A stretch of DNA of 40,325 nucleotides from Acidobacteriota bacterium (lineage in GTDB: Bacteria > Acidobacteriota > Thermoanaerobaculia > Multivoradales > JAGPDF01), in the NCBI GenBank assembly GCA_050258075.1, contig JBLMYC010000163.1:1-40325 (forward strand), written 5' to 3'. The position numbers and the translations under genes were made by a program. The notes under the pieces were generated by a model. It was not told the DNA's origin. It ran no database searches and saw only the letters and a list, made by a program, of their open reading frames with translations. This document shows, piece by piece, positions 2,059 through 39,529 of the stretch. The stretch's first letter is position 1. Every line of letters begins with the position of its first letter.

Positions 2059-4986
<2,928 letters not shown>

Positions 4987-5018
4987 GGCACTCCTCTCGG
5001 CACCAAATGCGTCTGACG

Positions 5019-5047
5019 TTTTTAGCACCGCCTCACCGCGGAGTCAA
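5019..5047 (-). promoter_or_regulatory. Sigma70-like promoter for the kinase gene (TTGACT-N17-TAAAAA)
   Basis: The minus strand reads TTGACT (5047..5042), a 17 nt spacer, then TAAAAA (5024..5019). This is about 26 nt upstream of ATG 4986, which carries the GAGAGGAG SD. Confidence 0.45.
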
Positions 5048-24847: not shown

Positions 24848-25360
24848 CTAAGCAAGCTCGAACAGCGGGTCGCCGCCGTCGACCGCCTGGCCGGGGCGGA
24901 CGAAGACGCGACCCACCACGCCGGCGCGCTCGGACTGGATCTCGTTCTGCATCTTCATCGCCTCGAGGACGACGACGCCCTGGCCGGGCTGCACCTCGTC
25001 GCCCGCGGCGACCAGGACCGAGACGACACGGCCCGGCATGTACGCGGTGACGCGCTGCGGCCCGTCCGCGGCGTCGCGCCCGGCGCCCTGCTGCGCCAGG
25101 CGGGCGAGCGGGTCGAGCACCTCGACGCCCAGGATCTCGCCGTTGGCGGTGACTCGATAGCGGCCGTCGCCGTCGGCGTAAACGGCCACCTCGCGCTGCC
25201 TCCCGCCCACCAGCAAGCTGCGCAGCAGCGCCGTACCCACCGCCGCCGACTCGACCAGGTGCTCGACGCTGCCGATGCGCACGCTGTAATGGCCGCCGTC
25301 GCCGCGGCGCTCCACCACCACGCGCTCCTCGCGCTCGCCGATCCGGACGACCAGCTCCAT
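24848..25360 (-). CDS. Biotin carboxyl carrier (biotinyl-domain) protein with an N-terminal BT-like segment
   Basis: Start at ATG 25360 (ATGA overlap with the accC stop). The C-terminus VVVLEAMKMQNEIQSERAGVV carries the biotinylation motif EAMKM. Confidence 0.85.
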   Translation of the reverse strand: MELVVRIGEREERVVVERRGDGGHYSVRIGSVEHLVESAAVGTALLRSLLVGGRQREVAVYADGDGRYRVTANGEILGVEVLDPLARLAQQGAGRDAADGPQRVTAYMPGRVVSVLVAAGDEVQPGQGVVVLEAMKMQNEIQSERAGVVGRVFVRPGQAVDGGDPLFELA

Positions 25361-26907
25361 CAGCTCCTCCGCAGCCCTTCGCTGCGGCCGGTCGCGCGCC
25401 ACACCGCGCGCCGCGCGCCTTGCGCGATCGGCGCCGCAGCGCGGCGATGGCTGCGCTCGTAGTGCTCGATCGCCGCCGCCAGAATCGGCAAGTCGTCGTC
25501 GGCCACCGCGCCCTCGGGCCTCGCCGGCCGCAGCTCACCCGCCGCCAGGCGGCGGTCGAGCCAGCCGATATCGAAGCGCCCGGCCAGGAAATCGGGGTCG
25601 GCGAGCAGCGCCTTGTACAGCGGCTGGGTGGTGCGGATGCCCTCCACCCGCAGCTCCTCCATGCCGCGCGCCGCACGGCGCAGAGCGTGAGCGCGGTCGC
25701 TGCCCCAGAAGATGAGCTTGGCGAGCATCGGGTCGTAGTGCACCGTCACCTCGCCGCCCTCGTACACGCCGCCGTCCACCCGCACCCCCGGCCCCTGCGG
25801 CCAGCGCAGGAAGCGGATGCGCCCCGGCGAGGGCTGGAACTTCTGGTAGGGGTCCTCGGCGTAGAGGCGGAACTCGATCGCGTGGCCGCGCGGCTCGATG
25901 CCCTCGAGCTCGGGCCCGACCGGCTCGCCCATCGCGACGCGCAGCTGGGCGATGACCAGATCGACTCCGGTCACCTGCTCGGTGATCGGATGCTCGACCT
26001 GGAGGCGGGTGTTCATCTCGAGGAAGTAGAACTCGCCATTCGGCGCGAGCAGGAACTCGCAGGTCCCGGCGTTGCTGTAACCGACCGCCGACGCGGCGCG
26101 GACCGCGGCCTCGCCCATGCGGCGGCGCAGCTGCGGCGTGACGACCGGCGACGGCGCCTCCTCGATCACCTTCTGGTGGCGGCGCTGGATCGAGCACTCG
26201 CGCTCGTTCAGCGAGACGACCTTGCCGTAAAGGTCGCCGAGCACCTGGATCTCGACGTGGCGCGGGTTCTCGATGTACTTCTCGAGATACACCGCGTCGT
26301 CGCCGAAGCTCGCCTGGGCCTCCGAACGGGCGGCGCGGAAGGCGGCGGCGAGGTCGGCCTCGCCGGGCACCATGCGCATGCCCTTGCCGCCGCCGCCGGC
26401 GGCTGCCTTGATCATCACCGGGTAGCCGATCTCGCGCGCGAACGCCTTCGCCGCCTCCAGGTCGGGCAGCGGATCGCGCCCGCCGGGGACGACCGGCACC
26501 CCGGCGTCGATCATCCGCCGGCGGCACTCGACCTTGGAGCCCATCGCCGCGATCGCCTCCGGGCGCGGGCCGATGAAGGTCACTCCGGCGTCCCGGCACA
26601 GCGCCGCGAACTTCTCGTTCTCGGACAGGAAGCCGTAGCCCGGATGGATGGCGTCGGCGCCGATCTCGCGCGCCAGGCGCACCAGCTCGTCGCCGCGCAG
26701 GTAACTCTCGCGCGACGGCGCCGGGCCGATCCGGTACGCCTCGTCGGCGAGCAGCACCGGCAGGCTGAGGCGGTCGGGATCGGAGTACACGACGGCGCCG
26801 CTGATGCCCATCTCACGCAGGGCGCGCAGCACGCGCACCGCGATCTCGCCGCGGTTGGCGATCAGCACCTTGCGGATGGGCCGGGCCGGCACGTCGACGG
26901 GGCTCAA
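25360..26907 (-). CDS. accC: Biotin carboxylase subunit of an acyl-CoA carboxylase (AccC-like, extended C-terminus)
   Basis: KVLIANRGEIAVRVLRALREMGI, HPGYGFLSEN, GGGGKGMR, EMNTRLQVEHPITE. The start is TTG 26907 or GTG 26892. Confidence 0.92.
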   Translation of the reverse strand: MSPVDVPARPIRKVLIANRGEIAVRVLRALREMGISGAVVYSDPDRLSLPVLLADEAYRIGPAPSRESYLRGDELVRLAREIGADAIHPGYGFLSENEKFAALCRDAGVTFIGPRPEAIAAMGSKVECRRRMIDAGVPVVPGGRDPLPDLEAAKAFAREIGYPVMIKAAAGGGGKGMRMVPGEADLAAAFRAARSEAQASFGDDAVYLEKYIENPRHVEIQVLGDLYGKVVSLNERECSIQRRHQKVIEEAPSPVVTPQLRRRMGEAAVRAASAVGYSNAGTCEFLLAPNGEFYFLEMNTRLQVEHPITEQVTGVDLVIAQLRVAMGEPVGPELEGIEPRGHAIEFRLYAEDPYQKFQPSPGRIRFLRWPQGPGVRVDGGVYEGGEVTVHYDPMLAKLIFWGSDRAHALRRAARGMEELRVEGIRTTQPLYKALLADPDFLAGRFDIGWLDRRLAAGELRPARPEGAVADDDLPILAAAIEHYERSHRRAAAPIAQGARRAVWRATGRSEGLRRS

Positions 26908-26930: not shown

Positions 26931-29258
26931 TCAGGGCCCTTCGGGCCGGGCGCGGGCGACGAAGAGCAGCCCGAGAGCGCCGAGGGCCGCGAGAGCGAAG
27001 CCCCAGCGAAGCGGCGTCCGGTCGACTGCGAGGGTCACCCGATGGCTGCCGGGCGGCACCTCGACCCCCATCCGGTAGAGGTTCGCGGCGAGCAGCGGGA
27101 CCTCGGCGCCGTCGAGACGGGCCCGCCACAGCGGCAGGTGGGAGCGCTGCACGACGAGCACGCCGCCGGCGGGCGCTTCGACCTGCGCGACGAAGGACTC
27201 GGCGTCCTGCCGCTCGACCACGACCGTCCCGGGCGCGACGTCGCGCGGCGCGCCGGACCCGGGGAGGACGGCGAGCGGCCCGGCGGCGGGATCCCGGCGG
27301 GTGAGCGCCGCCACCGCGGCGTTGATGTCCGGCGCGTAGCGCACCCGTGTCGCCAGGAAGGCCGCGGGCCAGGGCGACTCGACCGCGTAGACGTAGAGCT
27401 CGCGCCCGTAGCTCGGCAGCCCGCGCACCAGGCGCGCATGCCCGTCGGCCGGCGGTTCGAGCGGTCGATCGAGGAGCAGCCGCCCGACCCCCCAGGCCTG
27501 GAGGAGCAGCATCCGGCGCTCGTCATCGAGCTGCGCGACCGCGCCCTGGGCAACTCGGGCGAGGAACGAGTCGAGGCCCTCCGCCGAGCAGTCGAGCTCG
27601 TAACGGCGACCCCACAGCGTGCCGGCGGCCGGGTAGAGCTCGGCGAACGCCCGGCGCTCGACGAAGCGCAGGTCGGGCTCGGCGAAGCTGCCATCGGTGA
27701 TGCGGTTCTCGCCGAAGAGATCGAGGAAGCTGCCCTGGACGACCGGCGCGTCGCCTGGCACGTCGGCGAGGAGCGCCGGCGGCTCACGGTACGGCGCCGC
27801 GTCGTCCATCGGGTAAAGCGGGCGCAGCAGCCAGAGCTGCGCAGCGGCGTGCGCGGCGAGGAGCAGGCCCGCCCAGGCGGGACGGTGACGCGCGAGACGC
27901 AACAGGCCGAACAGCGCCGCGAGAACGACGAGCGAGATCAGGCACAGCCCCGCCCAGCGCAGACGCTCGTGGGCAACGAAGGCATCGGGGAAGGACGCAG
28001 GCACGACGCGGCGCAGCAGCGCCTGCATCGCCTCCGGACGCAGGGCCAGGGCCAGCCAGAGGAGCGCCAGGAAACCCGCCACGGTCGCCAGAGCCACGTT
28101 CTGCCGACGCCGCGCACCCGCATCGTCCGGCGCCGCGGTGCGCTCGTAGCCGATCCCGCACAGGACCGAGCCGCCGATCGCGACCAGCAGCCAGAGCTTG
28201 ATCGGATAGCGCAGCGCGCCGGCCCGGAACGCGAACGCAGCCAGCGGATTGAACCGGCCGAGGGCGAAGAAGACGCCGACCGCGACACTCGCCCACGCCC
28301 ACAGCGCCAACCGCCGGCCGGCCGGCCGCCCCGCCGCCGCCAGCCAGCCGAACACCAGCAGCCCGGGGTAGAGCGCCAGGTAGTACGGCGGCCGGCCGGT
28401 GTAGAACTGGCTGCCCCAGAACATGCCGGCGCCCAGCGAGTCCAGGCGCCCGAACGGCAACGGCAGCAGCCACTCGAGGACCTGGCGCGGATCGAACGAC
28501 TCGACCGTGCTGCTCGCGGCGCTGTAGCCGAAGTGGCCCCGGAACGAGAGCGGCAGGATGCGGAGCAGCTCCACCCACTGCGGCGCGGCGAGCAGGGTGC
28601 CGGCGAGAATCGCCAGCGCGAGCCCGCCGAGCGCCCGCCATTCGACCGGCCGGATCCAGAGCGCCCCGAGCGCCAGGAGCAGCGCCAGCCCGGCGAGCAG
28701 CGGCTCGCCGGCGAGGAGCAGCAGCGCCCACAGCAGGCCGGTCAGGATCAGGCCGCGGCGCGGGCGCTCGCCGGTCGCCTCGAGCGCCGCGGCGATGAGC
28801 GCCGGGGCGAGCGCCACGCCGGCGATCAGGTTGTAGAAGTTTAGGTTCGACAGCACGTAGCCGCTCGTCCCGTACACGATCCCGGCGGCCCACGCCGCCT
28901 CGCGGGCGAGACCGAGGCGGCGCGCCAGCCAGGCCATCGCGAACGGCGCGATCAGCAGGTGGAGCCAGAAGTGCGCGTTGAGCGCCCACAGGTCGCTGGC
29001 AAGGAGGTAAAGCACGTTGTCCGGGTAGAGCGGCACCGCGTTCGGGTTGCCGAGCAGGGGTTGACCGCCGGCGCGGTAGGGGTCGACGAGCGGCAGCCGC
29101 CCGGCGCGCAACGCCTCGGCCTCGGCGTGCTTCATCGGCAGGTGAGTGTTGAAGACGTCGCGCAGGAAGAGCGTCCTCCCGCCGCCGACGAGCGGCGCGA
29201 TCGCCAGCGTCAGGACGAGCGCGCCGGGGAGGACGAAGAGGAGGACGAAGCGTCTCAT
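26931..29258 (-). CDS. YfhO-family-like polytopic membrane protein (GT-C-type glycosyltransferase candidate), paralog 1
   Basis: 775 aa. The N-terminal pattern LFLRDVFNTHLP...GRLPLVDPYRAGGQPLLGNPNAVPLYPDNVLYLL matches the YfhO signature as I recall it. It has more than 10 TM helices. The C-terminal soluble region ends in ...GVEVPPGSHRVTLAV plus a final TM helix. Confidence 0.72.
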   Translation of the reverse strand: MRRFVLLFVLPGALVLTLAIAPLVGGGRTLFLRDVFNTHLPMKHAEAEALRAGRLPLVDPYRAGGQPLLGNPNAVPLYPDNVLYLLASDLWALNAHFWLHLLIAPFAMAWLARRLGLAREAAWAAGIVYGTSGYVLSNLNFYNLIAGVALAPALIAAALEATGERPRRGLILTGLLWALLLLAGEPLLAGLALLLALGALWIRPVEWRALGGLALAILAGTLLAAPQWVELLRILPLSFRGHFGYSAASSTVESFDPRQVLEWLLPLPFGRLDSLGAGMFWGSQFYTGRPPYYLALYPGLLVFGWLAAAGRPAGRRLALWAWASVAVGVFFALGRFNPLAAFAFRAGALRYPIKLWLLVAIGGSVLCGIGYERTAAPDDAGARRRQNVALATVAGFLALLWLALALRPEAMQALLRRVVPASFPDAFVAHERLRWAGLCLISLVVLAALFGLLRLARHRPAWAGLLLAAHAAAQLWLLRPLYPMDDAAPYREPPALLADVPGDAPVVQGSFLDLFGENRITDGSFAEPDLRFVERRAFAELYPAAGTLWGRRYELDCSAEGLDSFLARVAQGAVAQLDDERRMLLLQAWGVGRLLLDRPLEPPADGHARLVRGLPSYGRELYVYAVESPWPAAFLATRVRYAPDINAAVAALTRRDPAAGPLAVLPGSGAPRDVAPGTVVVERQDAESFVAQVEAPAGGVLVVQRSHLPLWRARLDGAEVPLLAANLYRMGVEVPPGSHRVTLAVDRTPLRWGFALAALGALGLLFVARARPEGP

Positions 29259-31477
29259 CGTCGCGCCGCCAGCAACGCCGCGCCCACCAGGCCGAGCGCC
29301 GCCAGGAGCGACGCCACTTGCTCGGGCCGATCACCGACCCGCAGCTCCACCCGGTGCTCGCCGGCCGGCACCTCGACCGCGAGCAGCGCCATGTCGGCGA
29401 TTCGAGTCGGGAGCGTCTGGCCCTCGGCGCTCGCCCGCCACAGTCGGTGGTAGGCCCGGCGCACGACGACGACACCACCCGGTCCACGGGTCTCGAGATC
29501 GATCGCGTCGGGCTCCATGCGCAGGACCTTGACCACCCCTCCCGGACGTTGCTCGACCGGAGCCGAGAGTGCCGGGCTCGCAATCGGGTCCGGTCCCTGC
29601 TCGACGACCGCCGCAGCAGCGCTCGGATCGGCGGCGAAGACGACTCGCTCCGGCCACCACGCGGCGGGGGCGGGGTGCTCGACCGCGAGCAGATGCGAGG
29701 TCACGCCCAGCCGTTCGGCCTGGGCGATCTCTTTCAGGCCATCGACCGCCACCTCCTCGTGGGTGACGATCGCGTCCACCCCGAGAGCCCGCAGCCAGCG
29801 CACTCGCGCCGCCCACGACGCATTGGAGACGCGGGCCATGACCAGGGCCTGCAGCGGCGTGCCCATGCCCTCGCTGTCCGGGCGCAGCGGATCCGCAAGC
29901 CCGAAGCGCACGCCCGGCGTCGGTGCGAGATCGGCGGCCTGCGCCCGCAGCAGCAGACTGCGCGGTCCGGCGACGCGGTAAGCCGGCACCGGGCCCCACG
30001 GCGGCTGCGACAGCGCGACGTCATGCACCGCAAACCCCGGCAGCAGCTTCACCCACTCCGCCGGCTCGCGGTACGGCCCGACCTCGTCGCGCAGCAGCAG
30101 CGGCCCGAGCTGCAACAGCCCCACAACCTGCAGCGCGACCAGCGCGGCGCCGCTGCGCCGCCGCGCCGCCAGCGCCGCCAGCGCGAGCAGCAGCGCGGCC
30201 AGTCCGAGCGCCAGGGCCGCCCCGCCGGCCTGGACGCCGAGCATCGTCCGCGCCGCCGCGTCGCGGGCCTGGTCGAGCAGGATGGCGCGCAGCAGCACGG
30301 CGGCGGCGGCCGCCGCCAGACAGAGGCCGGCGGCCAGCCCGGGGCCGAGGCCGCGCCGGCGCTCGCCGCCGAGCACCTCCTCGGTTCCCGCCGCGACCAG
30401 CAGCGCGGCGCCGAGCGCGGTCCAGAACAGCGCCTTCTCCGGATAGCGCAGCAGCCCGGCCGAGAACGTCACGAGCGCCGGCCCCGCCCAGCCGCCGGCG
30501 ACCCCGATCACGATCCCGCCGAGCGTCAGGGCGGTGGCGCCCCGCGTCCGGCGCGCGCCGACCGCCGCCAGATACAGCCCGACGATTCCGAAATAGAGGC
30601 TGAGGAAGAGCGGGCCGCGCGGCGCCAGCGCCGTGCCCCAGAAGCCGTACGGCCCGACCCAGGTCGGGCGTCCGAGGGGCAGCGGCACGACCAGCTCGAC
30701 CAGCCGCCCTAGGTGGAGCGCGTAGGAGCCCGGGACAATCTCGCCGGCCCGCGCGGCGAAGCCCACGATGCGCGCCGTCGCGACGATCTGCGGCAAGGCG
30801 ACGACGAGCCCGAGGCCGACGATCGTGCCGCCCACGACGAGCGCCTGCCGAACCCCGTGCCGGTGCAAGATGAGCGCGAGCGGCACCACGCCGAGCAGCG
30901 CCGTCACCGGCTCGCCGCCGAGCAGGGCGAGCCCGAGCGCGACTCCGCCGAGCGCCATGCCGCGGCGATCGCCGCGTTCGGCGCCGAGCAGCACCCACGG
31001 CCACCACGCCGCGACCGTGACCAGGTTGTAGAAGGTCAGCGCGCCGAGGAACCAGCCGCAGCCGGCGTAGGTGATCGCCCCGGCGAGCGCCGCGGCGGGC
31101 GAGCGGCCGCGGGCGCGCAGCAGCGCCAGCATGCCGAGCCCCGCGAGCCCCCAGTGCAACACGAAATGCAGATTGAAGGCCCGCCAGAACGGCAGCAGGC
31201 GATACAGCAGGTTGTCCGGGTAGTACGCCAGCGCGGCGGGATTGCCGCGGAACGGCTGGCCGAGGCCCGCGGTCGGGTCGAAAGCCGGCACCCGACCGGC
31301 TGCGAGCTCCGCCGCGCCAAAGGCCTTGACCGGGAAGTTGTTGCCGAAGACGTCGCGGAAGCAGAGCGTCTCGCGCCCCAGCGCCAGCGGCACCGCGATC
31401 CACAGCCAGAGGGCCGCGATCGCAGTCACCACCGCCCACAGCCTCAACCCCTCGCCATCCCGTCTCGCGTCGATCAC
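29255..31477 (-). CDS. YfhO-family-like polytopic membrane protein, paralog 2
   Basis: Inside ORF 29255..31732. Clear paralogy to 26931..29258: LCFRDVFGNNFP...GRVPAFDPTAGLGQPFRGNPAALAYYPDNLLYRLL and the C-terminal AVEVPAGEHRVELRV plus TM. ATGA overlap with paralog 1. The start is uncertain (GTG 31477, TTG 31447 or GTG 31432); the upstream part of the ORF is shadow sequence opposite the UbiA gene. Confidence 0.7.
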   Translation of the reverse strand: MIDARRDGEGLRLWAVVTAIAALWLWIAVPLALGRETLCFRDVFGNNFPVKAFGAAELAAGRVPAFDPTAGLGQPFRGNPAALAYYPDNLLYRLLPFWRAFNLHFVLHWGLAGLGMLALLRARGRSPAAALAGAITYAGCGWFLGALTFYNLVTVAAWWPWVLLGAERGDRRGMALGGVALGLALLGGEPVTALLGVVPLALILHRHGVRQALVVGGTIVGLGLVVALPQIVATARIVGFAARAGEIVPGSYALHLGRLVELVVPLPLGRPTWVGPYGFWGTALAPRGPLFLSLYFGIVGLYLAAVGARRTRGATALTLGGIVIGVAGGWAGPALVTFSAGLLRYPEKALFWTALGAALLVAAGTEEVLGGERRRGLGPGLAAGLCLAAAAAAVLLRAILLDQARDAAARTMLGVQAGGAALALGLAALLLALAALAARRRSGAALVALQVVGLLQLGPLLLRDEVGPYREPAEWVKLLPGFAVHDVALSQPPWGPVPAYRVAGPRSLLLRAQAADLAPTPGVRFGLADPLRPDSEGMGTPLQALVMARVSNASWAARVRWLRALGVDAIVTHEEVAVDGLKEIAQAERLGVTSHLLAVEHPAPAAWWPERVVFAADPSAAAAVVEQGPDPIASPALSAPVEQRPGGVVKVLRMEPDAIDLETRGPGGVVVVRRAYHRLWRASAEGQTLPTRIADMALLAVEVPAGEHRVELRVGDRPEQVASLLAALGLVGAALLAARR

Positions 31478-31500
31478 GTGCTCCCGGCTCTCCAGCCCCG

Positions 31501-31506
31501 TAGAAT
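31501..31506 (+). promoter_or_regulatory. -10-like TAGAAT, 7 nt upstream of GTG 31514 (UbiA-family gene). The reverse complement TATTCT faces the YfhO-like genes.
   Basis: Read directly: CCCCGTAGAATACCCGCCGTG. Confidence 0.35.
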
Positions 31507-31513
31507 ACCCGCC

Positions 31514-32386
31514 GTGCTCGTGCCCCTCGTCCGCTCGCTGCGTCCCGCCCAGTGGTCGAAGAACGTCTTCGTCTTCGCGCCCCTCGTCTTCGCACAGAAG
31601 CTCCAGGACCCCCACGCCCTGCTGCGCGCAACGCTCGCCTTCGCCGCCTTCTGCAGCGCGGCGAGCGCCGTGTACCTGGTCAACGACGTGCGCGACCGCG
31701 ACGAGGACCGCCGCCATCCGCTGAAGCGTCACCGCGCGATCGCCGCCGGCACGCTCGGGGTCGGCCCGGCGCTCGTCGCGGCAACGCTGCTCGCCGTCGC
31801 GGCGGGCGTCGCCGCCTGGCGCCTGGGCCCAGCGTTCACGGCGCTGCTCGGCGGCTACGTGCTGCTCAATCTGACCTATTCACTCTACTTGAAGCAGCGC
31901 GTGATCCTCGACGTGATGGCGATCGCCGCCGGCTTCGTGCTGCGCGTCGTCGCCGGCGCGGTCGCGGTGCCGGCGCCGGTGTCGAGCTGGCTGCTCCTGT
32001 GCACGATCTTCCTGGCGCTGTTCCTCGCCTTCTCCAAGCGCCGCCATGAGCTGACCCTGCTGCAGGACGGCGCGGCCGACCAGCGCCGGGTGCTCGAGCA
32101 CTACTCGCCCGCCTTCCTCGACCAGATGATCAACGTGGTGACGGCGTCGGCGGTTGTCTCCTACGCCCTGTACGCGGTGGCACCGGAGACGGTGCAGAAG
32201 TTCCACACCGAGCACCTGGTCTACACCGTGCCACTGGTGCTGTTCGGGATCTTCCGCTACCTGTACCTCGTGTACCAGAGCCCGGGGGCGCGCAACCCGA
32301 CCGAGGCGATCCTGCACGACCCGCCGTTCCTGCTCAACATCGCGCTGTGGGGCCTGGCGGTGCTGTGGATCGTGTATGGCCTCTGA
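31514..32386 (+). CDS. UbiA-family decaprenyl-phosphate phosphoribosyltransferase-like enzyme (DPPR synthase type)
   Basis: In the frame of ORF 30713..32386. LRPAQWSKNVFVFAPLVFA, the Asp-rich motif YLVNDVRDRDEDRRHPLKRHRAIAAG, and a second motif region with about 8 TM helices. The start is GTG 31514, or alternatively GTG 31478. Confidence 0.82.
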   Translation: MLVPLVRSLRPAQWSKNVFVFAPLVFAQKLQDPHALLRATLAFAAFCSAASAVYLVNDVRDRDEDRRHPLKRHRAIAAGTLGVGPALVAATLLAVAAGVAAWRLGPAFTALLGGYVLLNLTYSLYLKQRVILDVMAIAAGFVLRVVAGAVAVPAPVSSWLLLCTIFLALFLAFSKRRHELTLLQDGAADQRRVLEHYSPAFLDQMINVVTASAVVSYALYAVAPETVQKFHTEHLVYTVPLVLFGIFRYLYLVYQSPGARNPTEAILHDPPFLLNIALWGLAVLWIVYGL

Positions 32387-33431
32387 GGCCGCGGCCCGCG
32401 CCTCGACTTGGCGCCGCATCTATCCGTTCGAGATCGCCGCTGCGCTGGTGGTCGCGAGCGCCGTCATCTTTCTGCGCGCCCAGGGCCTGCGCATCGACTG
32501 GCACACGGTCGGCTACACCATCCCGCCGATGCTGCCGATCACCGGCAAGGCGCTGCTCGCTGGAATCCCGCTGGTGCTCCTGTACCGCGCGCTCAGCCGC
32601 CAGTCGCTGCGCGGCTACCTGCGCGAGGTCGCGAGCTTCTCGTGGCTCCAGCTCTGGGCCCGGCTGTGGATCTCCTACATGGCGATCACCTACGCCTACT
32701 TCTGGCTCAAGGTCTCGGTGCCGCTCGTTCACTGGCGGGTGTTCGATCCAGAGGCCTGGCGACTGGACACCCTGCTCCACCTCGGCGTCTCGCCGAGCGT
32801 GTTCATGGTCAACCTGCTCGCCGGCACCCCGCTGCTCCGCTGGCTCGACGTCTGGTACGGGCTGTGGCTGAAGACGGTGTTCTACTCGATCGCCTTCTTC
32901 TCGGCGTTCCCCGATCCGGTGCTGCGCCGCCGCCTGATGCTCTCCTCGGTGCTGATCTGGGGCCTCGGGGCGTGGATCTACACCGCGTTTCCGGTGCTCG
33001 GGCCGATCTACGCCTACCGCCAGCAATGGGCGGCGGTCGAGGGGCAGATGCCGATCGCCGAGGGGACCCAGGCGATGCTGGCCGAGAACTACGCGCGAGT
33101 CGTCGCCGGGCGCGACGGCACGCTGCGCGCCTTCAACCCGACCCGCGGCGTCGCGGCGATGCCGAGCCTGCACGTCGGCGTCCTCTGGCTGCTGATGCTC
33201 TTCGCGCTGCGCTACGCGCGACCGCTGTTCCTGTTCTTCGCGCTGGCGACCGCCGCGACCTTCGTGGGGGCGCTGGCGACCGGCTGGCACTACGCGATCG
33301 ACATCTACGTGGGGATTGCCCTCGCCCAGCTCTGCTACTGGCTGGCCTGCCGGCTGGAGGTCGAGCCCGAGGCGGGGGGCGAAGCGACCGGCGTGGCGGC
33401 CGGCGGCAGCGCGCCGCCGAGCTCGCTCTGA
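32376..33431 (+). CDS. PAP2-superfamily integral membrane lipid phosphatase/phosphotransferase (PAP2_3/AUR1-like)
   Basis: ATG 32376 overlaps the UbiA-family stop by 11 nt. It has multiple TM helices. C-terminal catalytic motifs: AAMPSLHVG and GWHYAIDIYVG (SxH ... HxxxD). Confidence 0.75.
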   Translation: MASEAAARASTWRRIYPFEIAAALVVASAVIFLRAQGLRIDWHTVGYTIPPMLPITGKALLAGIPLVLLYRALSRQSLRGYLREVASFSWLQLWARLWISYMAITYAYFWLKVSVPLVHWRVFDPEAWRLDTLLHLGVSPSVFMVNLLAGTPLLRWLDVWYGLWLKTVFYSIAFFSAFPDPVLRRRLMLSSVLIWGLGAWIYTAFPVLGPIYAYRQQWAAVEGQMPIAEGTQAMLAENYARVVAGRDGTLRAFNPTRGVAAMPSLHVGVLWLLMLFALRYARPLFLFFALATAATFVGALATGWHYAIDIYVGIALAQLCYWLACRLEVEPEAGGEATGVAAGGSAPPSSL

Positions 33432-34930
33432 CGGCGGGCGCGCAGCGCCTCCGGCACCCGGTACAGGCGCCAGCGCGTGCCGCTGGTGACCGGCACCAGA
33501 CCGGCGCGCTCCACCAGATGGCGATGAATGGCCTCGTCGCCGCTCGCGATCACCCAGTCGAAGTAGGCGAAGTCGGAGATGCGCACCCGGTTCGGCAGCC
33601 ATTCGAGGCCCAGGGTCCAGGGGCCGCTGCGCGGGGTGCGATAGACGACCAGCGAGGGGGCGAAGTCGGCGAACGAGAAGTTCAACTCGCCGCCCTTCAT
33701 CACCTGGGCGTACGCAAAATCCTGGATGAACGGGTTGCCCCGGATGATCAGGCTCTCCGGGTAGTAGCTGAGCCCGAGAACCCGCGGCTTCTCGGGCAGG
33801 GCGGCGACCGCCGGCGCCAGTCCGTCCAGCTCCACGCTGGAGAACGCGATCCAGTAGACGCTGGTGCCGGCAACGAACAGCGTCAGCGCCGCGACGGGCA
33901 GCCAACGCACGAGCGCCGCTGGCAAGCGCGGCGCCGGCGCCGCGAGCAGCAGCGCCACGACCGCACAGGGCATCCAGCGCTCGGCGAGGTGAATCGTGTT
34001 CTGCGCCTCCATCGGCAGCACGGCGGCCGGCAGGAAGAGGACCCCGGCGAGCAGCAGCAGGCGCGGCGACCAGGCCGCCCGTCCTTCGGCGCGGTGCTGC
34101 CAGGCGGCGAGGAGCAGCCAACCGAGCACCACCAGCAGAAACACCGGCTCGAGATTGCCGCGCAGCCCGCCGAGCACCGCGTCTTTCAATCCCGACGGGC
34201 CGAAACGCGCCCAGACGCTCGCCGGCCAGTAGACCGGCGAGTCGAAGCCGCGGCGCCCCAGGGTCGGATACCACCACAGCGCCAGCAGGCCGACCGGCGA
34301 AACCGCAAGGCCACGCAGGAACTGCTCGCGCCACGGCAGACGTGCTCGCCACCCGTCGACGACCAGCCACAGACAGCCCATCGCGAACCACAGGACATGG
34401 CTGAAGTAGAGCAGCGCGGCGCCGCCGAGGAGGCGCGCCGCCGCGCGCCAGTCGCAGCGCGCGTCCGGCTCGACCTCGGTCAGCCGCAGCCAGACGACGA
34501 AGACCACCCAGCCAAAGAGGAAGCTCAGGAATCCCCAGTACAGGGTGTGATTGAACACCAGCGCCGACGCGAGCACCGCCGCGCTCGCCGGGCGGCGCAG
34601 TCGGACGGCGAGCCAGTGCACGGCGCCGACCCACAGAGCGACGACCAGCAGGAAGCCCAGTCGCCCGGCCCACGCCGGACCGCCTAGGAGCCAGCCGACG
34701 GCGGGCAGGACGTAGGACAGGCCATACGGCGTCAGCCACTGGATGCGATAGAGATCGGCGTGCTCGCCGAGCGCCTCGCCGAACAGTCGGATCTGCGCCG
34801 CGTGCTGCGGCAGGTCGGTGATCGGCGGGAAGCGGACGAGCAGGAAGGGGACAACGACCAGGACGATCGCGACCGCGGCCAGGCCCAGCCGGCCGCGCTC
34901 GGAGGTGCTGGTCGACGGCTCGGCGCTCAT
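33335..34930 (-). CDS. Uncharacterised polytopic membrane protein (about 11 TM helices plus a C-terminal soluble domain); possible glycosyltransferase or polymerase
   Basis: 531 aa ORF with ATG 34930. It has hydrophobic helices throughout (LGLAAVAIVLVVVPFLLV, FLLVVALWVGAVHWLAV, ...), then a soluble region LGLSYYPESLIIRGNPFIQDFAYAQVMKGGELNFSFADF... I recognise no family. The last ~32 codons are antisense to the PAP2 gene end. Confidence 0.6.
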   Translation of the reverse strand: MSAEPSTSTSERGRLGLAAVAIVLVVVPFLLVRFPPITDLPQHAAQIRLFGEALGEHADLYRIQWLTPYGLSYVLPAVGWLLGGPAWAGRLGFLLVVALWVGAVHWLAVRLRRPASAAVLASALVFNHTLYWGFLSFLFGWVVFVVWLRLTEVEPDARCDWRAAARLLGGAALLYFSHVLWFAMGCLWLVVDGWRARLPWREQFLRGLAVSPVGLLALWWYPTLGRRGFDSPVYWPASVWARFGPSGLKDAVLGGLRGNLEPVFLLVVLGWLLLAAWQHRAEGRAAWSPRLLLLAGVLFLPAAVLPMEAQNTIHLAERWMPCAVVALLLAAPAPRLPAALVRWLPVAALTLFVAGTSVYWIAFSSVELDGLAPAVAALPEKPRVLGLSYYPESLIIRGNPFIQDFAYAQVMKGGELNFSFADFAPSLVVYRTPRSGPWTLGLEWLPNRVRISDFAYFDWVIASGDEAIHRHLVERAGLVPVTSGTRWRLYRVPEALRARRQSELGGALPPAATPVASPPASGSTSSRQASQ

Positions 34931-34945: not shown

Positions 34946-34989
34946 GCCGACATGTCGCGCCCGATTCGCCGCGCCCGGTGCTGTCGCCG

Positions 34990-36132
34990 ATGCGATTGAC
35001 CGAGGTCGTCGTCCGCTTCCACCCCTACGTCGGAGGGGTCGAGACCACGGTGTACGAGCTCGGCCGTCGGCTGGCGCGGCGCGGCCACGCGGTCGAGGTC
35101 GTCTGCGCCGACGTGCCGGCCGGAGCGCCGCCCGAGGTCGCGGGCATCGCGGTGCGCCGGCTGCCGGTCTTCGGCCGCATCGCCGACACTCCGCTGTCGC
35201 GCGGCGTGGCGCGCACCGTCCGCGCCACGCGGCCGGACGTCGTGCACGCCCACATGACGCCGCCGTGGTGGTGCGACGGCGCAGCGCGCGCCGCGCGGGG
35301 GCTGCGCGTACCGCTCCTCCTCACGTACAACAACGACGTGGTCGGGCGCGGTCTCGGGGCACTCGTCGCCGGGCTGTACAACCGGCTGTTCCTGCCGGGC
35401 CTGCTGCGCGGCGCCGAACGCGTCGTGCTGCCCAACCCGGCTTATCGCGATCTCTCGTCTTGGCTGCGCGCGTCCCCGGCCCGTTTCCTGAGCATCCCTT
35501 GGGGAGTCGACACCGAGCGCTTCGCTCCGGTGGCGCTGCCGAGCGAACCGGGCCTGGTCCTGACCTTTCTCGCCGTGCTCAAGGCTCAGCACGCCTACAA
35601 GGGCCTCAGCCCGCTCCTCGCGGCGCTGGCGGACGCACGCCACGCCGGAGCGACGGCACGGCTGCGGGTCGGCGGGGCCGGCGATCAGCTCCCGCGCTAC
35701 CGCGAGGAGGCGGCGCGGCTCGGTCTCGGCGACGCGGTCGAGTTCCTGGGCTTCGTCCCCGACGCCGAGCTGCCGGCGTTCTTCCACTCCGGGGACGTCT
35801 TCGTCCTGCCCTCGACGACCGCCGCGCAGGAAGGCTTCGGCCTGGTGCTGCTCGAGGCGATGGCGAGCGGCCGCGGCGTGCTGACGACCCCGGTGGTCGG
35901 CATGGCGGCAGAGATCCGCGAGGCCGGCGCGGGCGTCCTCGTCGCCCCCGGCGAGGTGGCCGCGCTCGCCGACGCGATCGTCGCCCTGGCCGCCGATCCG
36001 GCCCCGACCCGCGCCCGGCTCGCCGCGATGGGCGAGCGCGGACGGCGGCTGGTCGAGCGCCGCTTCGACTGGGAGCGCGTCACCGACGCCTACGAGCGCC
36101 TGCTCCAGGAGCTCGTCGCGGCGCGGGTCTGA
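34990..36132 (+). CDS. GT4-family (GT-B fold) glycosyltransferase
   Basis: MRLTEVVVRFHPYVGGVETTVYELGRRLARRGHAVEVV ... PSTTAAQEGFGLVLLEAMASGRGVLTTP (EX7E-type motif). The start is ATG 34990, or alternatively GTG 34978. Confidence 0.88.
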   Translation: MRLTEVVVRFHPYVGGVETTVYELGRRLARRGHAVEVVCADVPAGAPPEVAGIAVRRLPVFGRIADTPLSRGVARTVRATRPDVVHAHMTPPWWCDGAARAARGLRVPLLLTYNNDVVGRGLGALVAGLYNRLFLPGLLRGAERVVLPNPAYRDLSSWLRASPARFLSIPWGVDTERFAPVALPSEPGLVLTFLAVLKAQHAYKGLSPLLAALADARHAGATARLRVGGAGDQLPRYREEAARLGLGDAVEFLGFVPDAELPAFFHSGDVFVLPSTTAAQEGFGLVLLEAMASGRGVLTTPVVGMAAEIREAGAGVLVAPGEVAALADAIVALAADPAPTRARLAAMGERGRRLVERRFDWERVTDAYERLLQELVAARV

Positions 36133-36149: not shown

Positions 36150-37316
36150 TTGAGCGAGCCAGCGCGCCCCCGTTCGCCGGAGCCCGAGCTCGAGGTCTCG
36201 GTGGTGATGCCCTGCCTGAACGAGGCGGCGGGGGTCGGGGTCTGCGCGGAGAAGGCGCGCGCGGCGCTCGCGAAGATGGGTGTCGCAGGCGAGGTCGTAG
36301 TGGTCGACAACGGCTCGACCGACGGCTCGCCGGAGATCGCCGCGCGGGCCGGGGCGCGGGTCGTCCACGAGCGCCGGCGCGGCTACGGCTCGGCCTACCT
36401 GCGCGGCTTCGCCGAGGCGCGCGGCCGCTACCTGGTGATGGGCGATGCCGACGACACGTACGACTTCACCGCCATCCCGGCCTTCGTCGAGCCCCTGCGC
36501 CGCGGCTGCGACCTAGTGATGGGCACGCGCCTCAAGGGCGAGATCCTGCCCGGCGCGATGTCCTGGAGCCACCGCTGGATCGGCAATCCCATCCTGTCCG
36601 GCATGCTGAAGCTGTTCTTCAAGACCCGGATCTCCGATTCGCACTGCGGCATGCGCGCCCTCACCCGCGACGCGTTCGAGCGCATGGATCTGCGCACCAC
36701 CGGCATGGAGTTCGCCTCGGAGATGGTGGTCAACGCGCTGCGCGCCGGGCTGCGCATCGAGGAGATCCCGATCACCTACCGGCGCCGCATCGGCGAGTCG
36801 AAGCTGGCCGGCATGCGCGACGCCTGGCGGCACATCCGCTTCATGCTGCTCTTCTCGCCGGCCTGGCTCTTCCAGCTCCCCGGGGTGCTGTGCCTGCTGG
36901 TGGGTGGCGTGCTCAGCGCACTGTTCGCGACCGGGCCGCGCGTCGTCCTCGGGCGCACGTTCGACTACCACGTTCTGTGGCTGGGCGTGCTGCTGCTGAT
37001 CCTGGGCTACAACCTGGTGCTGTTCGACGCGCTGGCGAAGACCTTCTCGATGGGCGCCGGCTTCGCTCGCCCGCAACAGTGGCTGCGCCGGTTCCTGAAC
37101 GTGTTCACGCTCGAGCGCGGCCTGCTCTGGGGAGCGCTGCTCTTCCTCGCGGGCGTGGCGCTCGAGGCGAAGATCGCCTTCGACTGGGCGCACGCCGGCT
37201 ACGGCCCGCTCACCGCCCATCGCGGCTTCATCCTCGGGATGACCGCGATGGTCATGGGCGCGCAGACCGTCTTCGCCTCGTTCCTGATCGACCTGATGCT
37301 GATCCGGAGGCGTTGA
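36150..37316 (+). CDS. GT2-family glycosyltransferase with C-terminal TM helices (polyprenyl-phosphate sugar synthase, GtrB/CsbB/DPM1-like)
   Basis: In the frame of ORF 35265..37316, whose 5' two-thirds are shadow sequence across the GT4 gene. VSVVMPCLNEA, VVVVDNGSTDGS, MGDADDTYD, and four C-terminal hydrophobic helices. The start is uncertain (TTG 36150 or GTG 36201). Confidence 0.82.
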   Translation: MSEPARPRSPEPELEVSVVMPCLNEAAGVGVCAEKARAALAKMGVAGEVVVVDNGSTDGSPEIAARAGARVVHERRRGYGSAYLRGFAEARGRYLVMGDADDTYDFTAIPAFVEPLRRGCDLVMGTRLKGEILPGAMSWSHRWIGNPILSGMLKLFFKTRISDSHCGMRALTRDAFERMDLRTTGMEFASEMVVNALRAGLRIEEIPITYRRRIGESKLAGMRDAWRHIRFMLLFSPAWLFQLPGVLCLLVGGVLSALFATGPRVVLGRTFDYHVLWLGVLLLILGYNLVLFDALAKTFSMGAGFARPQQWLRRFLNVFTLERGLLWGALLFLAGVALEAKIAFDWAHAGYGPLTAHRGFILGMTAMVMGAQTVFASFLIDLMLIRRR

Positions 37317-37321
37317 GCCCG

Positions 37322-38053
37322 ATGCCCGGCATGCTGAGCCGCTTTCTCGAGCGCACATTCCGCTCGACCGAGGAGGCCAATCGCCGCGCGATCTTGGCGC
37401 TGGCGGATCCCCGCCCCGGCGGGCGCCTGCTCGACTGCGGCTGCGGCGACGGCAAGTTCTCGATGGCGCTCGCTGCGCGCCTCGAGGCGCGCGAGGTACA
37501 CGGCATCGAGGCCGTGCCGGATCGGGTGCGCTCCGCCGCCGGCCGCGGCATGATCGTCGCGCAGGCCGACCTCGAGGCCCATTGGCCGTATCCCGACGGA
37601 CATTTCGACGTGGTACACGCCAACCAGTTGCTCGAGCACCTGCGCCAGAGCGATCATTTCCTGCGCGAGCTTCGGCGCGTGCTCGCTCGCGGCGGCTACG
37701 CCTTGATCTCGACCAACAACCTGGCGAGCTGGCACAACGTCGTCTCGCTCATGCTCGGTTTTCAGCCGCCGCCGATGCACGTGTCGAACGAAGTCGTGCT
37801 CGGCAACCCGCTCGACCCCTTGCGCGGCCATCGCTTCGGGGCGCCCGAGGACAGCCACCTGCGCATCTACAGCTTTCGCGCCCTGCGCGACTTCGCCGAA
37901 TACCACGGGTTCCGGGTGGCAGCGTTGCGGACGGCCGGGTACTACCCGCTGCCGCCCGCGCTGGCCCGCATGATGACCAGGCTCGACCGCCAGCACGGCG
38001 TTTTCCTGATCGCCAAGCTCGCTCCGTCCGGACCGCCGGGCAGCGAGCCCTAG
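37322..38053 (+). CDS. Class I SAM-dependent methyltransferase
   Basis: ATG 37322 inside ORF 36890..38053. SAM motif I RLLDCGCGDGKF, plus DVVHANQLLEHL and RVLARGGYALIST. Confidence 0.85.
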   Translation: MPGMLSRFLERTFRSTEEANRRAILALADPRPGGRLLDCGCGDGKFSMALAARLEAREVHGIEAVPDRVRSAAGRGMIVAQADLEAHWPYPDGHFDVVHANQLLEHLRQSDHFLRELRRVLARGGYALISTNNLASWHNVVSLMLGFQPPPMHVSNEVVLGNPLDPLRGHRFGAPEDSHLRIYSFRALRDFAEYHGFRVAALRTAGYYPLPPALARMMTRLDRQHGVFLIAKLAPSGPPGSEP

Positions 38054-38628
38054 ACGGGCTTCAGTGGTTCGAGTTCGAAATACAGCTCGTTCGCGGGAAG
38101 CATCCAGCAGAGGAATCGCTCGTAGAACAGAGGGAAGCGATTGATCAACCAGGTGAGCAGTCGCCCTGGGACCTCGCGTTTCTCGTTCTTGATCCAGTAG
38201 AAGAGGATCTGGCGGCGCCGAATGCGGAAGCGTAGATCGGAGTAGAAGTTGTAGACGCCGTCCTCCGTGAAGTAGTCGAAGCTGTGGTAGCCGAAGAAGC
38301 GGCGGTGCGTCGGGTCGGTGTAGGCGCCGAAGAAGGACAGATGAGGAACGGTGATCCGGATCACCGCTCCGGCGCCCGCTATCCGCCAGAGCTCGCGCAG
38401 CAGCGGCAAGAGGTTCGTGACATGCTCCAACGTGTGTACCGCGATGACCTCGTCGAACGTAGCGCTGCGAAACGGCAGCGGTCTCTCGAGATCGGCGATC
38501 ACGTCGACTCCCGGCACCCGCACGACGTCCAGATTGACATAGCCGCTGCGGCGATCGCGGCCACATCCGAGATTGAGCCTCCTCACCGCGCTCGAATATA
38601 GCAGCCGGGTGAGACGCGTGACCGACAC
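38050..38628 (-). CDS. Class I SAM-dependent methyltransferase (Methyltransf_11-like), in a low-GC patch
   Basis: RRLNLGCGRDRRSGYVNLD, FDEVIAVHTLEHV, LRELWRIAGAGAVIRITVP. The start is GTG 38628 or ATG 38676. My hand count over 38051-38160 gives about 54% GC. Confidence 0.75.
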   Translation of the reverse strand: MSVTRLTRLLYSSAVRRLNLGCGRDRRSGYVNLDVVRVPGVDVIADLERPLPFRSATFDEVIAVHTLEHVTNLLPLLRELWRIAGAGAVIRITVPHLSFFGAYTDPTHRRFFGYHSFDYFTEDGVYNFYSDLRFRIRRRQILFYWIKNEKREVPGRLLTWLINRFPLFYERFLCWMLPANELYFELEPLKPV

Positions 38629-39529
38629 GAGACGCCTGATCGTGCGCTGGTTGCCGTGGTTGGTAGCTGGCGCCATCGTCGCCGCCCTCTTTTCGCGTGT
38701 CGATCCGCAAGGCCTCCGCCAGGCTTTTCGCGGTGCCCCTCTTCTGGTCCTGATCCCCTACGTAGTGCTGGAGATCCTCGCCGCCTGGCCGCTCGACTCC
38801 CTTGCCACCCAAGCCGCGTTTGCCGCGGCGCAGATCAGGCGGCCGTACGGTGAGATTCTGGCGATGCGGGGAGCGAGCTACATCCTCGGCCTGTTGAGCT
38901 ACGCCCTCGGCCAGGGGGGCACCGGCGTCTATCTGGTGCGCACCGGAGCGCGGGCCTCGCGCGCGGCGGCGGCCGTGGCGCTGCTGCTGGTCGTGAACGG
39001 CCTCGCGCTGGTCCTGTTCAGCGCCGCCGGCCAGTGGGCTCCGCAGGCGGGAAACTCGGCCTACCGGATGCTCGCAGCCGGCCTGACGATCGCCGCGCTG
39101 CTCTATCTGCTCCTGATCGCGGCCCTCCCGGCGCGTCACGTGCCCTTCCGCCTCCTCGTCCCGCTCTTCGACGCCGGTGTCATGGGGCACATTCGAGCCA
39201 CGGCGGCGCGCGCGCCGCACGTCGCTCTGCTCGTCCTCCTGCACTGGGGTGCGTTCAGGATCTGGGGGATCCAGCTGCCGTTGATCCAGGCCGTGATCTG
39301 GATCCCCTCGATGATCCTCGTCGGAGCCTTGCCGATCACTCCCTCCGGGCTCGGCACGGTCCAGGCACTGCAAGTCCTGCTCTTCTCGAGGTACGCGCCC
39401 GGTGCCACGGCGGCGGCCCGCGCCGCCGACGTGCTTGCCTTCAGTCTGGTGCACCAGCTGCTGGCGATCGTCGCGCAGGCCGCGCTCGGCCTCGCCTGCC
39501 TGGCCAGGCTGCAGCGCTCCGACAGATGA
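38618..39529 (+). CDS. UPF0104 / lysylphosphatidylglycerol-synthase-TM-like (flippase-like) membrane protein
   Basis: In the frame of ORF 38573..39529. RRLIVRWLPWLVAGAIVAALFSRVDPQGLRQAF, followed by about 8 TM helices. The start is uncertain (38573, GTG 38618 or GTG 38642). ATGA overlap with the next GT4 gene. Confidence 0.65.
   Translation: MTDTRRLIVRWLPWLVAGAIVAALFSRVDPQGLRQAFRGAPLLVLIPYVVLEILAAWPLDSLATQAAFAAAQIRRPYGEILAMRGASYILGLLSYALGQGGTGVYLVRTGARASRAAAAVALLLVVNGLALVLFSAAGQWAPQAGNSAYRMLAAGLTIAALLYLLLIAALPARHVPFRLLVPLFDAGVMGHIRATAARAPHVALLVLLHWGAFRIWGIQLPLIQAVIWIPSMILVGALPITPSGLGTVQALQVLLFSRYAPGATAAARAADVLAFSLVHQLLAIVAQAALGLACLARLQRSDR

Follow-up and report, generated by a model that had tools for sequence, protein, structure and literature searches.

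We analysed a 40,325-nt window of DNA (contig JBLMYC010000163.1, Acidobacteriota bacterium; all coordinates below are window positions unless a related locus is named) that carries a plus-strand gene for a UbiA-family enzyme, an overlapping gene for an integral membrane protein of the PAP2 superfamily (Pfam family PAP2_3), and, divergent from both, genes for two large YfhO-like membrane proteins. The window has a G+C content of about 70%, and Pfam scans find the diderm markers BamD/YfiO, OmpA, TonB_C and RseP encoded within it. The closest relatives of both the UbiA and the PAP2_3 proteins come from Thermoanaerobaculia/Acidobacteriota metagenome-assembled genomes. Judged by these sequences, the source appears to be a diderm of the Thermoanaerobaculia (Acidobacteriota), in agreement with an earlier note on this DNA that had placed the locus outside the Actinobacteria.

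The UbiA gene and protein

One clear plus-strand coding frame runs across 31.5-33.4 kb, with a codon-position G+C (GC3) of 0.85-0.89. Because of this GC3 and of Pfam scores above cutoff for both products (81 bits to UbiA for the first), we do not regard the UbiA and PAP2_3 genes as chance open reading frames. The UbiA frame ends at a TGA codon (32384-32386) and has two usable starts, GTG 31478 (302 aa) and GTG 31514 (290 aa), the second of which was picked by two independent gene callers on near-identical public contigs. We therefore give the gene as 31514..32386 on the plus strand, encoding 290 aa; the start proposed in the earlier note, 31475, is a CAC codon and cannot serve as one. The motifs quoted there are nonetheless all in place, both in this protein (LRPAQWSKN at nt 31538-31564 and the Asp-rich NDVRDRDEDRRHPLKRHRAIAAG at 31682-31750) and, as described below, in its PAP2 partner.

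NCBIfam and Pfam models, structural database matches and gene callers converge on a UbiA-family polyprenyl-phosphate 5-phosphoribosyltransferase (PPPRS/DPPRS-like). The protein scores 309.8 bits against the NCBIfam equivalog for decaprenyl-phosphate phosphoribosyltransferase (NF008977, cutoff 234) and 236.9 bits against a second equivalog, NF008978 (cutoff 207), while models for heme-o synthase, UbiA (4-hydroxybenzoate prenyltransferase) and ChlG give 17-38 bits against cutoffs of 180-390. A model for HAD-UbiA fusions, NF006088, matches across its UbiA half with 208.6 bits; Pfam and NCBIfam scans of the protein find no fused HAD domain. Its sole sequence matches in the PDB are the Rv3806c entries 8j8j (E=2e-37) and 8j8k, and the identity to Rv3806c is 36%. 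The alignment places NDVRDRDED (aa 57-65) on NDVRDVEAD of Rv3806c, the loop II motif NDxxDxxxD, and KRRHEL (aa 175-180) on KRYAEL, the KRxxEL motif that holds the Arg/Glu pair of loop IV; the RPxQWxKN motif is aligned as well. The loop II NDxxDxxxD and loop IV R...E residues matter in both Citrobacter ORF15 and mycobacterial Rv3806c (PMC11127046).

Taken together, these comparisons strongly support a polyprenyl-phosphate 5-phosphoribosyltransferase function for the protein. A reading as an aromatic prenyltransferase was rejected on the model scores. The earlier note had likewise assigned the protein to the phosphoribosyltransferases rather than the aromatic prenyltransferases, and the scores give no sign that it falls in a non-phosphoribosyltransferase clade, so that assignment stands; it is, however, nothing new, as decaprenyl-phosphate phosphoribosyltransferase is already the standard NCBI annotation of the acidobacterial orthologs. 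More than 7,000 relatives of the protein were recovered.

The region upstream of the gene contains a CACGTG palindrome (31475-31480) that presents one GTG on each strand, at 31478 on the plus and 31477 on the minus strand. If both were used, the UbiA gene and the divergent YfhO-like gene would stand back to back with zero intergenic DNA. For the minus strand, some gene callers start at 31477 and others at 31432, so that the intergenic DNA before GTG 31514 measures 36 or 81 bp.

The PAP2_3 gene and protein

The second gene (32376..33431, plus strand) encodes a 351-aa integral membrane protein of the AUR1-like PAP2_3 family (PF14378, 84.8 bits, cutoff 27). Its ATG lies within the last UbiA codons, and the two genes share exactly nt 32376-32386, the 11-nt overlap of stop and start that the earlier note had reported. 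This overlap is kept in L169, a close relative contig with 93.7% DNA identity to the window up to position 38025, and the two genes are probably translationally coupled. A scan of 31200-33700 for sigma-70-like promoters found none; terminator-like sites in the same interval occur at chance level only and lie inside the PAP2_3 gene.

The classical PAP2 family (PF01569) scores 21.0 bits on the protein, below its cutoff of 27.2, and no NCBIfam model matches. PSLH lies at aa 263-266 and HYAID at aa 305-309. K112, D124, D131, H266, H305 and D309 are invariant in a family alignment of 25 sequences; the catalytic C2 His (H266) and C3 His and Asp (H305, D309), for which the earlier note had proposed looking in a PAP2 alignment, are thus all present. 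Searching the PDB by sequence with the family profile gave no meaningful match, and fold comparison was used instead. An AlphaFold2 (AF2) model of the protein has a mean confidence (pLDDT) of 92, and its top Foldseek matches in the PDB are the inositol phosphorylceramide (IPC) synthases 9vj4 (E=5.5e-4) and Aur1-Kei1 9ivc (E=9.6e-4), followed by PgpB (1.6e-2), SMSr (3.9e-2) and then LpxE. The IPC synthase matches have TM-scores of 0.45-0.55 and an identity of 16-17%, and the His-His-Asp spacing of 39/4 equals that of Aur1 H255/H294/D298. The resemblance to AUR1 and sphingomyelin synthases that the earlier note had raised is therefore real. From the model helices and the positive-inside rule we infer a periplasmic location for the triad together with the remaining invariant polar residues.

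The earlier note had also held that the pair mirrors Rv3806c-Rv3807c of M. tuberculosis, and this part did not survive comparison. In the M. tuberculosis locus, whose gene order is glf, glfT2, Rv3807c, ubiA, aftB, Rv3807c is a protein of 165-177 aa that belongs to PF01569, lies upstream of ubiA, and carries C1 KRLVRRQRP, C2 PSAH and C3 SRILLGVHYPSD, whereas the window has a downstream PAP2_3 protein of 351 aa that lacks KX6RP and the Ser-Arg of C3. A profile comparison of the two aligns C2-C3 only and is insignificant (hhalign probability 1.9%). What the two loci do share is the UbiA subfamily and an adjacent PAP2-superfamily protein in which the C2 His and the C3 His and Asp align; they differ further in that DprE1/DprE2 and Emb/Aft arabinosyltransferases are absent from the window and that the host is a diderm acidobacterium. 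By sequence, the partner is an AUR1-like member of the PAP2 superfamily and no Rv3807c ortholog.

At its 3' end the PAP2_3 gene overlaps a convergent minus-strand gene for a 531-aa protein by 97 nt (33335-33431), an overlap kept in L169. The C-terminal tails of both proteins are low-complexity, and that of PAP2_3 is low-confidence in the model, so the overlap may be genuine or may reflect a wrongly assigned stop in one of the two genes.

UbiA and PAP2_3 across related loci

We surveyed related loci from both sides, covering the best 80 genome loci for PAP2_3 and 80 metagenome loci for UbiA (orthologs of at least 60% identity considered), with neighbour genes assigned by tblastn of window proteins and from precomputed gene tables. 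On the PAP2_3 side, a UbiA ortholog lies directly upstream in only three loci; in four others PAP2_3 directly follows the biotinyl carrier protein (BCCP) gene of the same neighbourhood. On the UbiA side, most related loci have no PAP2_3 within 7-10 kb, and the genes found downstream of UbiA include GT2 and GT4 glycosyltransferases, MprF-type flippase-like proteins, PMT_2, a DegT aminotransferase and others.

A neighbour-joining tree nevertheless orders the PAP2_3 copies by context. All 8 PAP2_3 proteins from other species that lie directly downstream of a UbiA ortholog form one clade, which also holds the window copy and a near-identical one (L005) whose contig is too short to show its context. 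The BCCP-adjacent copies form a second clade, and copies in unrelated contexts form further ones. The family is thus, by sequence, multi-paralogous, with two lineages stably tied to the block of UbiA, GT-C-like and acyl-CoA carboxylase genes across species whose proteins share about 45-65% identity. This lineage-specific attachment supports a functional link for the window's PAP2_3 lineage rather than any particular reaction. The residues specific to the UbiA-adjacent clade are all uncharged, and give no clue as to whether a phosphomonoester or a phosphodiester is bound.

At three related loci the gene directly downstream of UbiA, in place of PAP2_3, encodes an LPG_synthase_TM protein resembling the MprF flippase domain (L087:10918-12027, L097:2404-3321 and L105:5752-6120), and the L087 gene shares 4 nt with UbiA. 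These proteins are candidate flippases for a lipid-linked pentose. Three metagenome loci show UbiA followed by a fused type, MFS-like and spermidine-synthase-like (L126:6222-8861); L111:2902-4464 has only the synthase/methyltransferase part, and the truncated L122:3580-4347 only the MFS part.

Divergent YfhO-like membrane proteins

Two minus-strand genes diverge from UbiA. The nearer one (29255..31477) encodes multi-pass membrane protein B, of 740 aa from GTG 31477 or 725 aa from GTG 31432, with a weak Pfam YfhO match; it overlaps by 4 nt the gene for multi-pass membrane protein A (26931..29258, 775 aa). A and B are paralogs with 35% identity, and their best Pfam YfhO match is weak and below cutoff (E=3.6e-6). 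Orthologs of A with 45-55% identity lie divergent beside UbiA at nine related loci and others. More broadly, a divergent membrane protein of 725-900 aa stands upstream of UbiA in about 24 of the 27 metagenome loci with enough flank, and at six further loci, and is usually followed by genes for a biotin carboxylase and a BT-domain biotinyl carrier. The constant partner of UbiA is this divergent YfhO-like membrane protein, rather than PAP2_3.

At E <= 1e-3 this large family comprises 33,154 representative clusters. YfhO is its only recurrent Pfam match, sub-threshold in 5 of 10 and in 8 of 40 members, and profiles of the family searched against the PDB returned no match. Single members among the 40 match DUF2079 or PTPS_related, both likewise members of the Pfam GT-C clan. 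The YfhO-like proteins are likely GT-C membrane proteins and candidate users of a lipid-linked pentose.

Other genes of the locus

Beyond protein A, the minus strand encodes an AccC-like biotin carboxylase (25360-26907) and a BT-domain (PCC_BT)/biotinyl carrier protein (24848 to about 25400), both identified with Pfam and NCBIfam. The order GT-C-like gene, AccC, BCCP is shared by 13 related loci, and the two proteins, whose genes accompany the GT-C-like/UbiA block, together look like an acyl-CoA carboxylase alpha subunit in split form. On the other side, the 531-aa multi-pass membrane protein convergent with PAP2_3 (33335..34930, minus strand) has no Pfam or NCBIfam match and is a recurrent UbiA neighbour, with homologs of 44-48% identity beside UbiA at three related loci.

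Further downstream, the plus strand encodes a GT4 glycosyltransferase (34978..36132; Pfam Glycos_transf_1 and Glyco_transf_4), a GT2 protein resembling AglJ/DPM-type polyprenyl-phosphate hexose synthases (36207..37316; Pfam Glycos_transf_2, NCBIfam TIGR04182/NF041391) with C-terminal transmembrane helices and an ortholog that carries GT2_TM_C, a methyltransferase (37322/37331-38053), named from methyltransferase Pfam domains in its L169 ortholog, and an LPG_synthase_TM membrane protein that resembles the MprF flippase domain (38573..39529; PF03706, 50.7 bits). This last protein is a candidate flippase for lipid-linked sugars. It is the only flippase-like gene product of the window, which yielded no gene of the MATE or GtrA family, and Pfam and NCBIfam scans detect no HAD or other phosphatase gene in the locus besides PAP2_3.

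The earlier note had seen no DprE1 or DprE2 in view, and this holds over a wider field. Members of FAD_binding_4/ALO, the short-chain dehydrogenases and the NAD-epimerases are absent from the GC3-supported window open reading frames scanned with Pfam, several of which had no match at all, and precomputed Pfam tables list none within +/-10 kb of four related loci.

Two observations concern the window outside this gene set. Beyond position 38025, about 1.3 kb of the window (38026-39329) diverges from L169 (15663-16394); a minus-strand methyltransferase gene of lower GC3 (38050-38676) is extra in the window and absent from L169, and a 74%-identical copy of it occurs elsewhere in the L086 cluster. 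The region looks like a small cassette that was replaced or inserted. At the other end, a 989-aa protein (2059-5028, minus strand) has a receiver domain at its N-terminus and TonB_C at its C-terminus in addition to a Ser/Thr protein kinase domain, an unusual architecture.

Discussion

Periplasmic pentofuranosylation from a lipid-linked donor has been worked out in Citrobacter youngae, where a UbiA-type synthase makes undecaprenyl-phosphate-ribofuranose from phosphoribosyl pyrophosphate (PRPP), a flippase and a GT-C enzyme then add ribofuranose in the periplasm, and epimerases are optional add-ons (PMC11127046). The O1 system of this species has three components, ORF15 (PPPRS-PRP), ORF14 (MATE) and ORF12 (GT136). 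The identity of the 5'-phosphatase varies by system, being a fused HAD domain, Rv3807c, or a member of another family in P. aeruginosa, and the Citrobacter HAD phosphatase is a soluble domain that acts before export; the dedicated flippase is of the MATE type in the prototype and of the SMR/GtrA type in others (PMC11127046). The earlier note had suggested that polyprenyl-phosphate-ribofuranose itself could serve as a periplasmic donor when epimerases are lacking. That concept had already been shown experimentally outside the Actinobacteria (Kelly et al. 2024, PMC11127046).

We think it fairly probable that the acidobacterial locus encodes periplasmic glycosylation from a lipid-phosphate-ribofuranose donor, a type of system that Kelly et al. 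2024 (PMC11127046) established, and that it forms a cell-envelope glycosylation island of a Thermoanaerobaculia bacterium. In the model we propose, the UbiA enzyme would act at the cytoplasmic face and transfer ribose-5-phosphate from PRPP to polyprenyl phosphate, probably undecaprenyl phosphate, yielding polyprenyl-phosphate-ribose-5-phosphate; this step is strongly supported by homology. PAP2_3 would then remove the 5-phosphate to give polyprenyl-phosphate-ribofuranose, a step to which we assign an even chance. Its chemistry would run through a phospho-histidine on H305, with D309 activating and H266 assisting, in a triad predicted to face the periplasm. Finally, and with somewhat better prospects than an even call, the YfhO-like, probably GT-C proteins would use the ribofuranosyl lipid directly and place ribofuranose on an envelope glycan or glycoconjugate outside the cytoplasm; we propose direct use because no epimerase is encoded nearby. 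The GT4 enzyme, the GT2 polyprenyl-phosphate hexose synthase, the methyltransferases and the MprF-type flippase-like protein may build or decorate the same envelope polymer.

Set beside the C. youngae O1 system, the locus would share a polyprenyl-phosphate-ribofuranose donor made by a PPPRS enzyme, a large polytopic glycosyltransferase acting outside the cytoplasm, and the lack of an epimerase. It differs in its phosphatase, which in C. youngae is a cytoplasmic HAD domain fused to UbiA and here would be PAP2_3, a protein of its own with a predicted periplasmic orientation, and in its flippase, which there is a MATE protein, a family with no member in the window, where the MprF-type protein is the one flippase-like product. 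The polytopic partner here is remotely YfhO-like, where C. youngae has GT136. Large YfhO-type polytopic proteins also act in YfhO/CsbB/GtcA teichoic acid glycosylation of Firmicutes, which likewise draws on a polyprenyl-phosphate-sugar donor from a cytoplasmic synthase, and the window has a GT2 gene too; by contrast, the YfhO matches of the window fall below the Pfam cutoff, and their paired donor synthase is a UbiA enzyme that depends on PRPP, not a GT2. Among Proteobacteria, rhizobial NoeC is a further DPPRS homolog. The pilin arabinosylation genes of P. aeruginosa PA7 include a DPPRS-type UbiA outside the Actinobacteria that feeds extracytoplasmic pentofuranosylation (cited in PMC11127046). 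The PA7 and NoeC clusters carry DprE1/DprE2 homologs and make arabinofuranose, whereas no such homologs are seen in the window.

Several observations weigh against this model, and most of them concern PAP2_3. The C1 KX6RP and C3 Ser-Arg motifs, which bind a phosphomonoester in classical PAP2 proteins, are not found in it: K112 is invariant, while the Arg that follows is variable and differently spaced (WLKVxVPLVNxR), and the C3 region reads GSxxTGWHYAxD in the family (GWHYAID in the window). The best structural matches are phosphotransferases, the IPC synthases, ahead of PgpB. With its triad on the periplasmic side, the enzyme would require that the charged 5-phosphorylated lipid be flipped first. 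The genomic association is also loose, in that PAP2_3 lies directly downstream of UbiA in 5 of about 25 loci whose sequence continues for 1 kb or more beyond that gene, so that the pairing described in the earlier note, though present here with its overlap kept in L169, is a minority arrangement. PAP2_3 paralogs with 51-59% identity stand beside unrelated genes (UvrB, peptidases, cupin), and tandem arrays occur, with five copies around AccC/BCCP in L020 (3308-10402) and three in a row in L006 (8933-12045), which suggests diversification of substrate or acceptor. For the transfer step, the GT-C membership of the YfhO-like proteins rests on sub-threshold Pfam matches only, and an AF2 model of the 775-aa protein built from a two-sequence alignment was unusable (pLDDT 38, predicted TM-score 0.29). 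Finally, with only 40 kb in view, epimerases could be encoded elsewhere in the genome.

Weighing these points, we regard PAP2_3 as a candidate polyprenyl-phosphate-ribose-5-phosphate 5'-phosphatase, or possibly a phosphotransferase, and hold the first assignment to be evenly poised. The conserved 11-nt overlap, the UbiA-adjacent clade, the lack of another phosphatase at the locus and the invariant triad with Aur1 spacing support a role in the second step. Family and fold suggest the main rival reading, in which PAP2_3 would be an AUR1-like periplasmic phosphotransferase that attacks a lipid phosphodiester (a phospholipid head group or polyprenyl-phosphate-ribose), transfers the phospho-linked moiety to an envelope lipid or glycan through one of its hydroxyls, and frees the lipid alcohol. 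The window protein shares PF14378, the triad spacing and the absence of a classical C1 with Aur1/IPC synthases, its top fold matches are 9vj4 and 9ivc, and PAP2_3 is without the C1/C3 Arg/Lys of classical phosphomonoesterases such as Rv3807c; tandem paralog arrays would be expected of enzymes with diversified acceptors. Yet the TM-scores and identities of these matches are low, neither a Kei1-like partner nor any sphingolipid or inositol gene turned up in window scans, the partner gene encodes a phosphoribosyltransferase, and the window family has the additional invariant residues K112, D124 and D131 in a predicted periplasmic segment. Moreover, a PPPRS product needs dephosphorylation and the locus offers no other candidate for it, and the UbiA-adjacent clade is monophyletic with its adjacency kept, as suits a dedicated pathway step. 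We consider a phosphotransferase unlikely on balance, and quite unlikely in the specific form of a bacterial AUR1-like enzyme that uses the UbiA-made lipid-phosphoribose or a phospholipid to set a phosphodiester-linked group on an envelope glycan or lipid. If it were true, such phospho-sugar transfer would have no described precedent, and the tandem arrays would represent diversified acceptors.

Other readings detach one or another gene from the pathway. PAP2_3 might be a general periplasmic lipid phosphatase acting on lipid A, undecaprenyl pyrophosphate or phospholipids, leaving the UbiA product untouched and the true 5'-phosphatase encoded elsewhere. The many related UbiA loci without a nearby PAP2_3, and the close paralogs in unrelated surroundings, fit this idea; the conserved overlap with UbiA, and the persistence of two PAP2_3 clades with the UbiA/GT-C-like/acyl-CoA carboxylase block across diverged species, run counter to it and make it decidedly doubtful. 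Alternatively, lipid-linked ribose may not be the final donor, if epimerases outside the window (DprE1/DprE2- or ORF13-like) convert it to lipid-phosphate-arabinofuranose or -xylofuranose, as happens in mycobacteria, P. aeruginosa PA7 and C. youngae O2. The window covers just 40 kb of the genome, and known systems do feed both arabinofuranose and xylofuranose from the same PPPRS entry step; however, described systems have their epimerase genes in the same cluster (PMC11127046), and none was found among the window frames scanned or around the four related UbiA loci. We hold such a conversion to be unlikely. That UbiA is an ordinary prenyltransferase of the quinone, heme or chlorophyll type, misread as a phosphoribosyltransferase, is very improbable: automatic names from the Joint Genome Institute do call many orthologs 4-hydroxybenzoate polyprenyltransferase, but the models of those other families stay far below their cutoffs where both DPPRS equivalogs pass, and the two Rv3806c structures are the only PDB entries matched by sequence.

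The lipid-phosphate-ribofuranose system that we favour leaves the established concept unchanged and would carry it into a phylum and partner families new to it. What appears to be undescribed is the acidobacterial setting, the PAP2_3 candidate phosphatase, and the tight pairing with a YfhO-like family where known systems have enzymes of the GT136 or Emb/Aft types. PAP2, YfhO and Acidobacteria all go unmentioned in Kelly et al. 2024 (PMC11127046) and in its supplement, and a literature search on PF14378/PAP2_3 returned nothing relevant. The analysis nominates PAP2_3 as a third, structurally different kind of phosphoribose phosphatase, beside HAD and classical PAP2 proteins; should PAP2_3 prove to be a transferase instead, AUR1-type chemistry would reach into bacterial glycan modification. 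It also flags a conserved pairing between a phosphoribosyltransferase and a large uncharacterised YfhO-like family of about 33,000 clusters. Acidobacteriota are abundant in soil and sediment, and their envelope glycans are almost unstudied. Our model predicts that Thermoanaerobaculia put a pentofuranose, probably ribofuranose, on an envelope polymer by way of a lipid-linked donor.

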